A stretch of 64,000 bases of DNA from Planctomycetota bacterium (GTDB lineage: Bacteria > Planctomycetota > UBA8108 > UBA1146): assembly GCA_036338595.1 (NCBI GenBank), contig JAYZBV010000113.1, forward strand, positions 32,001 through 96,000, read 5' to 3'. Positions 58,091 to 63,288 of this stretch are shown piece after piece (position 1 is the first letter of the stretch; each line of letters opens with the position of its first letter). A model generated the notes under the pieces. The model saw only the letters and a program-made list of their open reading frames with translations, was not told where the DNA came from and did not search any database. A program made the position numbers and the translations under genes.

Positions 58091-58558
58091 ATGGCGAGGA
58101 CGACCGCCCGATCGAGTGCGCTTTGCTGCATCTACCTGCTGTTTGGTGGGTGTTGCCATGTCCCTGACGTGGATCGCCACTTCAGCACCGACGGTCCCTA
58201 TGAGACGGTTCGTTACTTCCGGTACGCCATCGATGCGGGGCAATACCCGGCTGCCTATCGTTGTCTAACTGGCACGAGTCAGGATCGAGTTTCTGCGCTC
58301 GCCTTCGAGGCGATGTTGCGATTCGCGGATGTACCACAACTGGGGGACATTCCCCTGAAGGAACTGCTGGTCTATTCCAGCATCGATCCTGTCACTGAAC
58401 CGATCTCGGCTGGTGAGCCCGATCAGTGGGTCACTCTGATCTGGTCTTCCGAGGAGCAACTCATCGAGTACTCCTTGCTGCTTCAACCCGACTCCACAGG
58501 CCAGTGGCAGATTGATCTGCTCCTGACCCGAGGTGTCGATCTCGGTGGAGCGATGTGA
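58091..58558 (+). CDS. hypothetical lipoprotein
   Basis: Lipobox-like FGGC; P.ETV..F..AI..G.Y..AY..L segment; operonic spacing. Confidence 0.65.
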   Translation: MARTTARSSALCCIYLLFGGCCHVPDVDRHFSTDGPYETVRYFRYAIDAGQYPAAYRCLTGTSQDRVSALAFEAMLRFADVPQLGDIPLKELLVYSSIDPVTEPISAGEPDQWVTLIWSSEEQLIEYSLLLQPDSTGQWQIDLLLTRGVDLGGAM

Positions 58559-59697
58559 TGGACTCGGTCTATCTCGATTTCAATGCAACGACACCCATCC
58601 ATGCTGAGATTGCTCACCAGATGTCCGGTTGGCTCCTTGCCGGGGAACCATCCAACCCATCCAGTTTGCACAGTCACGGCAGGGAAGCGCGTCGGTTTCT
58701 CGAGGAAGCGCGCCAGCGACTTGCTACCTATCTGCGTGTGGATCCTGCAGAACTACACTTCACCAGTGGTGGCACCGAATCCAACAACCTGGCGATGTTC
58801 GGGCTGGCACCTACCGATGCTCCGCTTCATGTCGGCGCCACCGAACACCCTTCGATTCTCGAACCTGCGAAACAGCAGTGGCAGAAGGGCCGCCCCGGAG
58901 GCTTGCTCGAGGTGGATCGCTTCGGGCGCATCCAGGAATTCGAGGTGGTGGAGGGCGCCCTCTACTCGATTCAATGGGTCAATAACGAGACCGGGATCAC
59001 TCAGGACATTTCAGCCCTGGCGACACGTATTCATGATGGTGGGGGCCGGTTACACATCGACGGGGCTCAGGGATTTTTCCGCCTCGACCCGACGCTGGCT
59101 GAACTCGGCGTCGACTCCGCATCGATCACAGCGCACAAATCCTTTGGTCCGATCGGTGTCGGCGCACTCTGGGTCAGAAGCGGAATGCTCATCGAACCGG
59201 TGATCCGAGGGGGACCCCAAGAGAAGAAGATCAGACCCGGTACCGAGAACCTTCCAGCCATTCGAGGACTTGGACTGCTCGCAGAAATCGCCGGGCGAAC
59301 TCCCCTCTGGAGTCTTGACCAGCTGAGGGATTCCAGAGCCGCTCTGGTCGCCAACCTGGAGTCGGTTCCCGACACACGCATCGTCGAGCACCAACCACAG
59401 GACTGGCCCGGCTGTCTGCACATCGGATTTCTTGGCATCCATGCCGAAACACTACTGGTCAGGCTCGATATGGCAGGGATATCCGCTTCCAGCGGTTCTG
59501 CATGCTCATCCGGAGCAAGGGAGCCGAGCCATGTACTGGCGGCGATGGGTGTCGAGCACGAATGGATCCGTGGCTCCATTCGCCTGTCGCTGGGGCCGAC
59601 CTGCAGTGTTGACCGGATGGCCAGTGTGGGATCCCAGCTGGCACGAATTGTTTCAGAGCTGCGTCAAAGAGATCTCCAGTCTCCTCCCATCGCATAA
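58555..59697 (+). CDS. cysteine desulfurase (IscS/NifS group I)
   Basis: YLDFNATTP, NPSSLH, FTSGGTESNN, VNNETG, H.DGAQ, TAHK, RPGTEN, SSGSAC. Confidence 0.93.
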   Translation: MMDSVYLDFNATTPIHAEIAHQMSGWLLAGEPSNPSSLHSHGREARRFLEEARQRLATYLRVDPAELHFTSGGTESNNLAMFGLAPTDAPLHVGATEHPSILEPAKQQWQKGRPGGLLEVDRFGRIQEFEVVEGALYSIQWVNNETGITQDISALATRIHDGGGRLHIDGAQGFFRLDPTLAELGVDSASITAHKSFGPIGVGALWVRSGMLIEPVIRGGPQEKKIRPGTENLPAIRGLGLLAEIAGRTPLWSLDQLRDSRAALVANLESVPDTRIVEHQPQDWPGCLHIGFLGIHAETLLVRLDMAGISASSGSACSSGAREPSHVLAAMGVEHEWIRGSIRLSLGPTCSVDRMASVGSQLARIVSELRQRDLQSPPIA

Positions 59698-59733
59698 AAA
59701 ATACACCGGGGTCTCGACGTATCGAGACCCCGG
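59695..59733 (-). terminator. intrinsic terminator of the actin-like operon (possibly bidirectional)
   Basis: Perfect 12-bp stem CCGGGGTCTCGA-CGTA-TCGAGACCCCGG, followed on the minus strand by TGTATTTTTT. Confidence 0.8.
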
Positions 59734-59767
59734 CAGAGAAGGGGGGGAGTGCATTGGAATCTTCGGA

Positions 59768-60865
59768 TCACTTTCTCATCTGGCTCCAGTACTCTTCTGG
59801 CATCTCCTGGGCCAGTTTCAGTGCACCTTGCGCACCTGCGTAAACCGGATCGTCGACAATCATGACTCGGCCTCCGCCGAGTGCTTCCAGTCCCTGTTCG
59901 AGGGCTTCCTGGAGGCCAAAGACTTGCGATCCTCCGCCGCTGACGATGATCCTGTTGCGGATACGATGCTGGAATTCTGGATCGAAGGAGGCTACCAGGG
60001 ATTGAATCCCTTGTGTAATCCACGGGACCAGTTCCTCGACGGCACTTCGTAGTTGCGGAGTGATGTCGATCTTGGTTGGGCAACCGGCCACGGGAAAGGT
60101 CACCAGAGCGCGATTTTCGGTATCGACCACGCTGCTGAAACGCTCCTTGGCGGTCTTGATCATGTTCGTTGTGAATTGAACCTGGGGGTGGGCCTCACGT
60201 ATCAATTCTGCGAGCCGTTGATCGACATAATTTCCGGCCCGAAATACGGTGACCTGGTCTTCTACTCCGGGCAGGCTGCCTGCCATCCGGCACAGGTCGA
60301 TGGTGCCAGCACCGATGTCGATGACGATGGCATTCTCCAGAGCACCGACGGCGTATGCGACGGAAAAGGGTTCTGATACCACCATCACACCATCGATGCC
60401 TGCGTCCCTGGCCAGATCCACGATCGCCTGCTTGTTCGCGCGTGTGGCTTCGGCTGGCGCACCGATCACGGCACAAACCGCCTGATCGGGCCTCGGATTA
60501 CTGGCCTTTCGCAACTGGGCCAGAAGCGTGACACCCGCCTTTCGCGACGCTTCCCTTTCGTTACCGCTCAACTCGGTGAACGCAAGATTTCCTGCGCTCA
60601 ATGGGTAACAGGTATTGAGTGCCAGCCGATTTTCCAGCACAGCGTCGCCCACAACGATGCTGGCGCCCAGTACCCTGGCAGATACCGAGTCCTTGGGCCA
60701 ACCGACCAGGCTCGCCATCACTTCACGGGCACCATTGGAACTGGCGATGGCGCTTCGGCTCGTCCCCAGATCGATTCCAACATGCAAGATACTCGTCTTG
60801 CTGCTGACCCATGGGGCGGCCACATCTTTGTCACTGTCTTGTTGCATCTTGTTTTCCGGGGTCAT
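59768..60865 (-). CDS. MamK-family actin-like ATPase
   Basis: GIDLGTS, VGWPKD, VVGD, YPL..G, AVIGAPA, VVSEPF, DIGAGT.DLC, EDQVT...AGNYVD, KE.FS, PEFQ, GGGS, GAL.LA.E.P..YW: collinear with MamK as recalled, not MreB. Confidence 0.88.
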   Translation of the reverse strand: MTPENKMQQDSDKDVAAPWVSSKTSILHVGIDLGTSRSAIASSNGAREVMASLVGWPKDSVSARVLGASIVVGDAVLENRLALNTCYPLSAGNLAFTELSGNEREASRKAGVTLLAQLRKASNPRPDQAVCAVIGAPAEATRANKQAIVDLARDAGIDGVMVVSEPFSVAYAVGALENAIVIDIGAGTIDLCRMAGSLPGVEDQVTVFRAGNYVDQRLAELIREAHPQVQFTTNMIKTAKERFSSVVDTENRALVTFPVAGCPTKIDITPQLRSAVEELVPWITQGIQSLVASFDPEFQHRIRNRIIVSGGGSQVFGLQEALEQGLEALGGGRVMIVDDPVYAGAQGALKLAQEMPEEYWSQMRK

Positions 60866-60867
60866 GA

Positions 60868-61569
60868 CTACCTTCCTTCTCGGTCCTGTGATCGTGTTTC
60901 TCCGGTTGCTGAGTCTTCTGCAAGGGATCGAAGAGCCACATTTGCCTGAAACAGTTGATCCAGGAGTTCTGATTTCTTGTTGTCAAAGGGGGACTTCACT
61001 TCTAACTCGTCGATCGCTGGATCGCCCTCGCTGGCGAGAGCGTGATCGGTCGCCTGAAGTGCAAGCGTCAATTCTTCGATCCTCATTTCGAGCCTTTCGA
61101 CCTGAGTGCGTTGGGAATCTCTTACCGTGGCCAGCTCGGATCTCCAGTCGCGCGCAATCAGCCGCGACAGTTGCACGAGCAGCGCCTTCTCTCTCTGTCC
61201 AAGCGCTCCAGTGGAGGCACCTGTCGAGGGCCGTGGTTGCTGTGCTTGCGGCGCCTCGGTGGGCGCAGCAATTTCTCTCGATGGGACGGCCACTTCCGGC
61301 AGATCCGCAGGAGGCGGCGGGGGGCTGGTGGGGGGAGCCATCAGATAGCTCTGGGCTCGATCCAGCAACAGTTCCCGTTCCTCGACACTGATCTGGATCT
61401 CTTCTAGCAACTCGGTCAGCGCTCTCGCGAGTGCTTTCCTGGCCGTGTCTCGCAACTGGCTCGCAGAGACGACTCGCAACTTGTGGATGCCCTTCTTCTG
61501 AAGGTCTTGCAGTTCGTGCATGGAACTGGCTCGAAGCGACCAGGGGCTATCACTGGCTTCAGGAGTCAT
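60868..61569 (-). CDS. hypothetical cytoplasmic protein: helical N-terminus, Pro-rich linker, coiled coil, amphipathic C-terminal helix
   Basis: GAAAGGA RBS; stop 2 nt before the actin start; no TM or signal peptide. Confidence 0.8.
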   Translation of the reverse strand: MTPEASDSPWSLRASSMHELQDLQKKGIHKLRVVSASQLRDTARKALARALTELLEEIQISVEERELLLDRAQSYLMAPPTSPPPPPADLPEVAVPSREIAAPTEAPQAQQPRPSTGASTGALGQREKALLVQLSRLIARDWRSELATVRDSQRTQVERLEMRIEELTLALQATDHALASEGDPAIDELEVKSPFDNKKSELLDQLFQANVALRSLAEDSATGETRSQDREGR

Positions 61570-61968
61570 CTCGGTCCTTTCTGCTGCAGCCGCGGGAGTA
61601 CCGCAGTGCTGGTGGAGGGGAGGCAAACGGCGTGCCCGCAACCGATCGAGGTTCCCGGCAGGATCGCCGCACCTCCCGACCCCAACTCCGTACCGATGGC
61701 GACCCGTGTGTCCCGGTTGTTGACAATCGGCAGCCTGTGTCCTATCCGAGGTGAGGGGGGGGGTGCCGAAAAGAGGGATCGGGTGCTACAATAGGACCAT
61801 CTGACACGGATTCCGCGCTGGAACGGTCGTCAGTGCGAGGATGCGGTGAGTCCCGATTCGGGTCCCTCGCCACCAAACGGGCCTATAATCAGTCCCGGTG
61901 CCATCCTCTGGATCGAGTTACCAGTCGATCCTCGCCCAGGATGTGCGCGCCCGAACAGGAGTCTACTC

Positions 61969-63288
61969 ATGGTTCACCTTCGTACCCCGGTGCTTTTCAT
62001 CGGCCTGCTCTTGCTGATGGTCATCTCGACACCACTCGCAGCACAGAATCCTGATTACATCTTTCATTTTGATACCAGTAGTTCAGGTCCTTCCGGTGCT
62101 GTCGTCACCACCCGAGCGTTGATCGATAACAACGGTGGAAATCTTGCAGGCTGGTCGATCGCCATCTGTCACGATTCCGCAATGGAGGTGATCGAGGCGG
62201 TCAGTGGATCCGCACCCAATACAGCCAACGCCGGCAGCCCAGCAGATTTCGATGAGCTGAGCCTGTTTCCCGGTTTTGGAGTGCGGCAGGGTGTTGTGAT
62301 CAATTTTGTCGGACAAAATGATCTTCCCATCAACACGGACCATGAGGCGATCGTGATGCAGGCACAGTTGCTGGGACCGGACGACACCTTTGCAGCCATC
62401 GATTACTGCACTGCGATTTTTCCAGGTGACTCTTCAGAATCGGAAAATCTGGCAGTGGCTCCCGGTGGAGTGGCCATCGAACCGACGACCATCGATGGAC
62501 TCATCGAGATCGGAGGATTGCTTCCTTTCGAACTGAGCGCCTCGCCCTCAGCGAGTAGCGTCGAGCAGGGACTCGATGTGGATGTCCAGATGCTGCTGGA
62601 TGCTCCCGTTGAGAATTACGGATTTTCCTTTGGCTTCGCCCACTCTGGCGAGGCGTTGATCCTACTGTCTGCCGAGGCTGGTGCCGCCCTCACAGCTCTC
62701 AATGGTGGCGACGGACCGGAATTCCTGGCCCTGGATATCGATCCGGTGGGAGCAGACGGCCTGATCGCCGCTTGTCTCTACTCGGTCTCCGATCTGACGA
62801 CGCTCCCTGCGGGCAATGGCCAGGAGTTGATCATCGGCCACTATCAGGTTGCCGACACGGCACCGATCGGCAGCACCGCTCTTGATTTCACCGATACCCT
62901 GGTGCCGCAGGTTTCTTCACCTCCGACAGCCATCGTGGTTTCGCTCGGCCTGTCCGGATCCGTTGTCCAGACATCGGGCACCAGTATCGAGATCCTCGAG
63001 GGGGTCGTCGGTGTCCAGTTCATGCGCGGCGATTTTGATGGAAACGGCGCTCTCAACCTGGGCGATCCGGTGAATCTGCTCGATTACATGTTCAGCGGCG
63101 GAGCCGCCTCCGCTTGCGAGAAGAATGGCGATATCGATGACAGTGGCAGCATCGTGCTGGGAGATCCGGTCCTGCTGCTGACCTACATGTTCTCGGGAGG
63201 AGAGCCTCCTGCTGCGCCATTTGACGAATGTGGAATCGATCCCACCGAGGATGATCTCACCTGCGAGCAGTTTGACGCCTGTCCCTGA
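61969..63288 (+). CDS. secreted protein with two cohesin-like beta-sandwich domains and a C-terminal dockerin-like domain
   Basis: Signal peptide; two internal repeats (GWSIAICHD / GFSFGFAHS ... P.F..L ... LP....E ... ID/DF ... G.IEI); FMRGDFDGNG..NLGD...C....DIDDSG...LGD...CGIDPT.D.L.C tail. Confidence 0.75.
   Translation: MVHLRTPVLFIGLLLLMVISTPLAAQNPDYIFHFDTSSSGPSGAVVTTRALIDNNGGNLAGWSIAICHDSAMEVIEAVSGSAPNTANAGSPADFDELSLFPGFGVRQGVVINFVGQNDLPINTDHEAIVMQAQLLGPDDTFAAIDYCTAIFPGDSSESENLAVAPGGVAIEPTTIDGLIEIGGLLPFELSASPSASSVEQGLDVDVQMLLDAPVENYGFSFGFAHSGEALILLSAEAGAALTALNGGDGPEFLALDIDPVGADGLIAACLYSVSDLTTLPAGNGQELIIGHYQVADTAPIGSTALDFTDTLVPQVSSPPTAIVVSLGLSGSVVQTSGTSIEILEGVVGVQFMRGDFDGNGALNLGDPVNLLDYMFSGGAASACEKNGDIDDSGSIVLGDPVLLLTYMFSGGEPPAAPFDECGIDPTEDDLTCEQFDACP

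Follow-up and report, generated by a model that had tools for sequence, protein, structure and literature searches.

A 64,000-nucleotide (nt) stretch from the genome of a marine, non-magnetic Planctomycetota bacterium that, on the available data, is uncultured (assembly GCA_036338595.1, contig JAYZBV010000113.1, positions 32,001 to 96,000; hereafter the window) encodes a MamK-related actin of the saltatorellin type, and the gene directly ahead of it encodes an unnamed soluble protein, here called the partner, that we regard as a candidate adaptor. An earlier sequence-only reading of this DNA presented the actin as an undescribed, stand-alone system and passed over the partner as an unknown gene. 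The actin, however, groups with saltatorellin, which already has a name, and it is the partner that is the undescribed component of the locus. Nor does the actin stand alone, as the genome has three further genes of the actin type: another MamK-like one, a volactin/Mad28-like one, and MreB. Judging from sequence profiles, all three non-MreB actin genes found in the genome follow members of one partner family, with the same head and an actin-matched tail, because a hidden Markov model (HMM) of the head finds the third paralogue and the tail switches with the type of actin. What is new is this family of partners, or adaptors, and its deployment with actins of two families.

Both genes lie on the minus strand. 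The partner frame (60868..61569, 233 aa) runs from an ATG at 61569 to a TAG at 60868-60870, and 2 nt separate it from the actin gene (59768..60865, 365 aa), as first reported. A GGAAGG ribosome-binding-like site lies inside the end of the partner gene (60866..60876, gap included); this site and the 2-nt gap suggest that translation of the two genes is coupled. A second ribosome-binding-like site, AAAGGA, stands 5 nt ahead of the partner ATG (61575..61580). The 12-bp terminator that had been read as closing the unit was also found, as a perfect inverted repeat (59706-59717/59722-59733) followed by a U-rich tract on the minus strand (overall 59694..59735); the terminator-like hairpin has a folding energy of -28.1 kcal/mol (z-score -5.5), and 0 of 200 shuffles folded as well. 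From this layout, we presume the locus to be a co-transcribed two-gene unit, partner then actin. The RNA data consist of one oligo-dT run with six short contigs of 90-99% likeness, which are scattered over genes and intergenic DNA and so cannot demonstrate transcription or an operon; three further runs gave nothing usable for the locus.

The partner lacks a Pfam, NCBIfam, or PDB family. Its model comprises a head (residues 16-77; 61339..61524) with a predicted beta-alpha-beta-alpha-alpha order, a disordered linker, a 60-residue helix that is a predicted coiled coil (residues 122-181; 61027..61206), and a tail helix (residues 199-214; 60928..60975). The predicted local distance difference test score (pLDDT) exceeds 90 over most of the long helix and is 60-83 for the head as a monomer, in which a strand is followed by helices and a basic patch is present. 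The tail, a candidate actin-docking element, carries the motif K..LL..LF..N..LR, with the Asn invariant in 38/38 aligned rows. Foldseek gave no match to the model at E<=0.001, including no DNA-binding fold, a profile search of PDB sequences returned generic coiled-coil matches only (best E 0.004), and the ESM Atlas had no usable match. The tail-module profile retrieves 1,078 clusters at 50% identity, in a listing that does not include taxonomy, and a membrane-like segment was seen in 0 of the top 150 family members. Outside subscription journals and bioRxiv supplements, we found no account of the partner, or of an adaptor family serving two actin families, in the open literature searched.

The partner module accompanies the actin across loci and genomes. 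In a gene-neighbourhood survey of the kind the sequence-only reading had proposed, a tail-bearing gene lies directly upstream of the actin in 65/65 unique MamK-like loci (L001-L087), the same loci that shaped the tail motif. Among 30 later loci, the prebuilt HMM detects the tail at E<1e-3 in 15 (12/27 without three repeats of training loci), with six weak matches in the right place; the HMM together with a relaxed motif, set after inspecting these loci, detects it in 27, and of the three loci missed, two lie at the end of a contig. The module occurs in 130 of 401 Planctomycetota genomes, comprising 128 of the 149 actin-positive genomes versus 2 of the 252 actin-negative ones, both marginal, and 250 genomes have neither; related genomes are not independent in these counts. 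Of the 11,538 six-frame open reading frames in the window's genome, 2 match the strict motif and 5 the relaxed one. The module was found at 0/13 BeeR-like loci and in 0/8 magnetosome operons of the alphaproteobacterial type. In 71 loci, which carry 18 family labels and many of which have flanks of just 1.5 kb, no third gene is conserved next to the pair, and the widest cluster spans 3 labels. Separately, a Walker-A protein resembling CpsD/CapB-type tyrosine kinases adjoins the partner in six loci (L110:3649-4029, L091, L092, L099, L104, and L086); this label comes from sequence reading rather than a family scan, and the 127-aa fragment has no match in the window's genome.

A second line of evidence comes from the third actin of the genome. 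The head HMM, which was built from MamK-like partners only, recovers a third partner paralogue (C85:1244-1939, minus strand; E 1.4e-7) that stops 5 nt short of the gene for a volactin-family actin (C85:39-1238, minus strand; PF25216 293 bits, cut-off 35). This actin, which is not the window gene, has both motifs that have been given for Mad28, S-x-G-x-G and x-E-x (PMC10653835). Its likeness is to volactin of Haloferax volcanii (PF25216; PMC10869688) and, by the described motifs, to Mad28; unlike those systems, the volactin-like gene here follows a paralogue of the window's partner. The third paralogue is present in 37/41 relatives, and in third-paralogue loci the head HMM matches 29/30 at E<0.01, versus 0/1160 shuffles. 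The tail of the volactin partner is conserved but differs from the MamK-type tail. Volactin-like genes occur in 133/401 Planctomycetota genomes; among 30 sampled loci, the head lies upstream (E<0.01) in 19 and the head or a tail in 27, and outside this class the corresponding counts are 4/14 and 11/14. MamK-like and volactin-like actins do not always co-occur across genomes. Other features of these loci include a TPR lipoprotein-like gene upstream of the C85:39-1939 pair (L131) that is conserved in most relatives, tandem volactin-like gene pairs in L184 (G350:C75) and several genomes, and volactin-like open frames of 600-1100 aa that may be fusions.

The tail is also modular. Among 78 longer tail-bearing representatives scanned, five have a GGDEF domain, one a PilZ domain, one an FHA-like domain, one a sub-cut-off coiled coil, and 70 have nothing recognized. 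The active-site motif is gone from the GGDEF forms, of which 7/9 inspected keep an RxxD five residues before the motif site; RxxD at such a position binds cyclic diguanosine monophosphate (c-di-GMP) in known receptors. In five loci of one family (L093, L095, L101, L103, and L114), the tail helix occurs in two to three Gly-capped tandem copies. The head is found in 39/96 longer representatives, being lost or replaced in many partners. The second MamK-like actin of the genome (C33:45334-46362, 42% identical to the window actin) is likewise paired with a longer partner (C33:45334-47645, minus strand; L001:10335-12646), the N-terminus of which falls in an ESM Atlas PilZ-containing cluster at 0.90 (32% of members); a degenerate PilZ barrel there is a lead only.

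The assignment of the window actin rests on motifs, family models, structure, and trees. The four motifs are intact in the 365-aa frame (IDLGTS at 31, SEPF at 164, DIGAGT at 183, and GGGS at 310), as had been noted; residues 1-20 are predicted to be disordered, with an alternative start at M7. The protein scores 392.7 bits against the NCBIfam MamK model (NF040964, cut-off 400), which is not magnetosome-specific, being passed in 97/401 Planctomycetota genomes. Among PDB sequences it matches MamK at E 3e-82, and its AlphaFold model (pLDDT 89) fits the MamK filament subunit 5ljv with a template modelling score of 0.96 of target and a root-mean-square deviation of 1.3 Å. MreB was rejected as an identity (71 bits versus 293), as the genome's true MreB (483 bits) is a separate gene in its own mre run, and so was BeeR (NF053558, 165 bits, cut-off 530), which forms a separate clade in both trees described below. 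The placement with MamK rather than MreB made by the sequence-only reading thus holds. The six signature motifs on which it had leaned are indeed absent from the genome's MreB and from 13 BeeR-like proteins, but one of them, PE[FY]Q, turns up more often among members of the planctomycete clade (62/69) than among proteins on the side of magnetosome MamK (20/120).

A phylogeny had been proposed as a check, and in it the actin does not fall inside MreB. Both trees were quick ones without bootstrap, with 91 and 66 rows kept after near-duplicate and short rows were left out, and branch support is given by the Shimodaira-Hasegawa-like approximate likelihood ratio test (SH-aLRT). In the first, the window actin and saltatorellin share a planctomycete clade of 70 rows (SH-aLRT 98). 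In the second, 39 planctomycete rows lie on one side of a branch (99) and 21 other MamK rows lie apart (93), a comparison that is without Nitrospirota, Omnitrophota, and magnetotactic-planctomycete MamK and samples deep-branching MamK thinly. In both, the planctomycete clade is apart from magnetosome-side MamK of several phyla, from BeeR-like proteins, and from MreB. Mean identity of the window actin is 39% to magnetosome-side MamK versus 44% to other planctomycete members. Twenty-two residue positions are clade-specific, with R47, R193, and F298 invariant in 69/69; we presume from general actin topology that such residues lie at the groove and do not count this placement as evidence. The actin family is common in Planctomycetota, occurring in 149/401 genomes (E<=1e-60), of which a few of the weakest matches may be BeeR-like, and it is present in all members of some families (16/16, 23/23, 14/14) and in none of others (0/24, 0/19). 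Named homologues of the actin and the partner are all from Planctomycetota, except for one actin match labelled Ca. Paceibacteria.

The saltatorellin gene of Saltatorellus ferox Poly30, which we recovered, is 45% identical to the window actin over 357 columns, and catalytic and nucleotide residues agree at 14/14 positions checked. Because the window actin groups with this named protein and the family is common in the phylum, the actin is, on sequence grounds, a member of the saltatorellin group rather than a new actin type; the two fall in different subclades, so one-to-one orthology is not implied. The S. ferox system resembles the present one in that a non-magnetotactic planctomycete without FtsZ has both a separate MreB and a MamK-related actin, with a tail-bearing gene upstream of the latter too. 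It differs in that the window's genome has two MamK-like genes and one volactin-like gene, whereas S. ferox has one and none; a volactin-like gene was not found in S. ferox or its apparent family. The single saltatorellin of S. ferox is matched by four tail-bearing proteins: the product of the gene next to saltatorellin, one encoded elsewhere that has a head as well as the tail, one with a degenerate GGDEF domain 6 kb away (G041:C1, about 3656821-3657855), and a more diverged fourth. Wiegand et al. named the MamK-related actin of the Saltatorellus clade and showed that its mCherry fusion forms filaments in Escherichia coli and in a Magnetospirillum gryphiswaldense mamK mutant; a role in shape-shifting and pseudopodium-like locomotion is a hypothesis of that study (bioRxiv 10.1101/817700). 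The parts of its main text drawn on here do not mention an operon, upstream gene, neighbour, or coiled coil, and its supplements may bear on the point. Planctobacterial MamK is also mentioned in PMC7203096.

Our preferred reading, to which we give a probability of about 0.5, is that the partner serves as an adaptor: by docking its tail on the actin, it would anchor and control the ends of the predicted filaments. Direct binding of tail to actin is putative and in our view probable, and, given binding, we somewhat favor anchoring or nucleation over pure inhibition. The actin would form ATP-driven dynamic filaments, as MamK does and as the saltatorellin fusion does in E. coli. The partner would dimerise through its coiled coil and present two tail helices, which may enter the IA-IIA groove between these two subdomains in the way that ParR binds ParM and arcadin-2 binds crenactin. 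The head, which recurs in the partner of an unrelated volactin/Mad28-like actin, would fasten the adaptor to a landmark in the cell that both systems share. As membrane segments are missing from the partner family, the attachment is most likely to the envelope and made via another protein. Filaments held at their ends in this way would shape the cytoplasm, or partition it, in planctomycetes without FtsZ, independent of the MreB elongasome; a filament positioning a cargo, as proposed earlier for this actin, is also plausible. The cellular job of the pair is the weakest step of the model. Arcadin-2 and ParR set an example: in each, a conserved C-terminal helix that follows an unstructured linker binds a co-encoded actin (PMC5173319). 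Volactin filaments bind the membrane by their tips through factors described as unknown (PMC10869688), and this attachment would fit the head-anchor model without proving it.

Several observations weigh against this reading. Conserved adjacency is a sign of shared function, not of contact, and none of the loci examined encodes a partner naturally fused to an actin. There are 21 genomes among the 149 actin-positive ones without a module match, some of which hold a diverged tail, and the short-partner profile matches the long paralogue weakly (E 0.043, probability 1.2%). The model of the whole partner has a predicted template modelling score of 0.28. The hydrophobic moment of the tail is 0.18, a value reached by 1379/2000 shuffles, so that the tail is not more amphipathic than shuffled sequence, and its L, L, N, and L at -7, -4, 0, and +3 also fit a short self-pairing zipper with Asn at the core.

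That spacing is the basis for a different account, in which the partner assembles with itself into a coiled-coil scaffold. The tail would then be a zipper for homo-oligomerisation, and the connection with actin would be indirect or arise through shared expression alone. The invariant Asn of the heptad-like L/L/N/L pattern, the low hydrophobic moment, and the 60-residue helix agree with it, as does the self-interaction of coiled-coil Mad proteins in deep-branching magnetotactic bacteria (PMC12748827). We consider it improbable, as the head is kept across actin families and only the type of tail varies with them, and the Gly-capped tandem tails in disordered regions resemble short docking motifs.

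If the tail does bind actin, it might instead act as an arcadin-2-like monomer-sequestering or depolymerising factor that sets filament turnover and tethers no cargo. The layout is that of arcadin-2, a co-encoded protein with a conserved C-terminal helix and a nonconserved linker (PMC5173319). Moreover, saltatorellin forms filaments in E. coli without the partner, so no nucleator is needed, and translational coupling would be expected to yield near 1:1 amounts. The conserved head, the coiled coil, the tandem tails, and the varied domain fusions fit multivalent tethering better, and we regard sequestration as unlikely, if somewhat less so than the scaffold. Crenactin/arcadin-2 and ParM/ParR are alike in having a co-encoded protein with a short conserved C-terminal helix (PMC5173319), but we found no sequence or fold similarity to them and no centromere-like repeats here.

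The ParM/ParR parallel also raises the possibility of a ParMR-like or salactin-like DNA segregation pair, in which the head would bind DNA and the tail would couple it to the filament. An operon of an actin with a small adaptor is compatible with this idea, as are the basic patch of the head and its layout of one strand and then helices, and salactin aids DNA partition (as stated in PMC10869688). The adaptor of a ParMRC-type system has a ribbon-helix-helix DNA-binding domain; the fold search with the partner model, however, gave no match to a DNA-binding domain. No centromere-like repeat array was found upstream in the locus, the paralogue, or S. ferox (~600-1000 nt around three promoter regions), and chromosomal ParB is present in 5/5 genomes tested. 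In addition, the head is missing from many partners, the adaptor gene precedes the actin, and the locus is vertically kept, with two copies in most family members. We therefore hold a segregation role to be quite improbable; a plasmid search gave weak MreB-type matches only.

The reading of the actin as part of a magnetosome cytoskeleton, or as left over from a magnetosome cluster that lies in some unassembled portion of the genome, is largely refuted. The idea draws on MamK as the nearest solved structure, on the existence of magnetotactic Planctomycetota (PMC7602337), and on the state of the genome (2.9 Mb, 88% complete). In that genome, 16 Mam queries matched nothing but the pair of MamK-like genes and, on separate contigs, generic HtrA, CDF, ArsB-like, and TPR genes, with no mamAB cluster and no mamA/B/E/I/M/P/Q set, and the actin branches apart from magnetotactic MamK; the earlier statement that magnetosome genes are lacking is thereby extended to the whole assembly. 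The queries came from eight metagenome operons, with 14 Mam labels confirmed by NCBIfam, MamJ and MamL below cut-off, and mamR and mamS assigned by position only, and 15/16 were detected in two control operons. One CDF protein of the genome scores 150-160 bits versus a MamB cut-off of 350, and no MamB above cut-off was found in 401 Planctomycetota genomes, where a diverged planctomycete MamB could score below it. Searches for MamI and gas-vesicle proteins gave no match in the genome and are uninformative alone because their controls failed to match as well. Separately, CDF transporters scoring 231-240 bits against the MamB model were seen in genomes without a MamK-like match (L120-L122; G399, G197, and G055).

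Comparison with known MamK systems shows both likenesses and differences. MamK with MamJ/LimJ of Magnetospirillum has the same fold and motifs and an actin paired with an upstream linker gene; magnetosome MamK systems differ in their magnetosome genes, which are missing here, and in lacking the partner module in 8/8 alphaproteobacterial-type operons. In Desulfovibrio magneticus RS-1, MamK, Mad28, and coiled-coil proteins (Mad20/23/25/26) jointly organise magnetosomes, so that two actin types occur with coiled-coil proteins (compared by description; PMC12748827). We treat this arrangement as a parallel to the gene set here, with homology not implied. BeeR of Verrucomicrobiota is likewise a MamK-related actin of non-magnetotactic bacteria of the Planctomycetes-Verrucomicrobia-Chlamydiae group with a disordered N-terminal extension (PMC11929497), but the window actin is far below its cut-off, and the relatives' BeeR-like genes are a separate clade without the partner. 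BeeR-like actins do occur in Planctomycetota (L053-L065, e.g. G009:C31:9062-10144; 413 bits versus the cut-off of 530 for one), where they are preceded by another long gene, with a ParB-like match ~2.8 kb away in G009; none was found in the window's genome.

A wider reading is tentative, and we think it rather doubtful as a whole: one modular adaptor family would run a multi-actin cytoskeleton of Planctomycetota. The shared head could link MamK-type and volactin/Mad28-type filaments to a common anchor, and the actin-specific tails would be bacterial counterparts of WH2 motifs, with tandem copies serving as nucleators. Versions with a c-di-GMP-binding degenerate GGDEF or a PilZ-like domain might switch the system, which would drive shape change and partition of the cytoplasm without FtsZ. 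The same set could also be the pool from which the magnetosome skeleton of MamK, Mad28, and coiled-coil proteins was recruited.

It is an open question by what means planctomycetes without FtsZ order, remodel, and divide their cells. There is little explanation of what MamK-like actins do in bacteria that are not magnetotactic, and few direct regulators of prokaryotic actins are known. An adaptor family of ~1,078 clusters at 50% identity, without a Pfam model and placed before two actin families, offers named candidates and a 16-residue peptide, and the finding bears on the origin of the magnetosome cytoskeleton. If the proposal is true, the adaptor would be a so far undescribed way of controlling the bacterial cytoskeleton.

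The surroundings of the locus complete the picture. FtsZ was found in 0/5 genomes tested (control 13/14), in line with the earlier statement that the lineage generally lacks it. No mam, mre, or par genes flank the actin inside the window, as first read, but that statement does not extend beyond it, as a same-strand mreB-mreC-(mreD)-pbp2-rodA run (C113:96213-102024) has rodA as its last gene, ending 213 nt past the window end. The genome's MreB lies in this run, 8 kb from the window actin; the mreC and mreD labels come from position and sequence reading, and the mreC candidate has no NCBIfam match. The run is 2.6 kb from the partner start, a closeness seen in no other locus compared (flanks 1.5-10 kb). 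Beyond the terminator-like hairpin, a cysteine-desulfurase-like gene (58555-59697, plus strand) is convergent with the actin. On the other side, a 480-aa secreted-looking protein is encoded at 61846-63288 (plus strand); it has no Pfam match, and its C-terminus is presumably dockerin-like and calcium-binding. Proteins of this type recur near these loci in the class.

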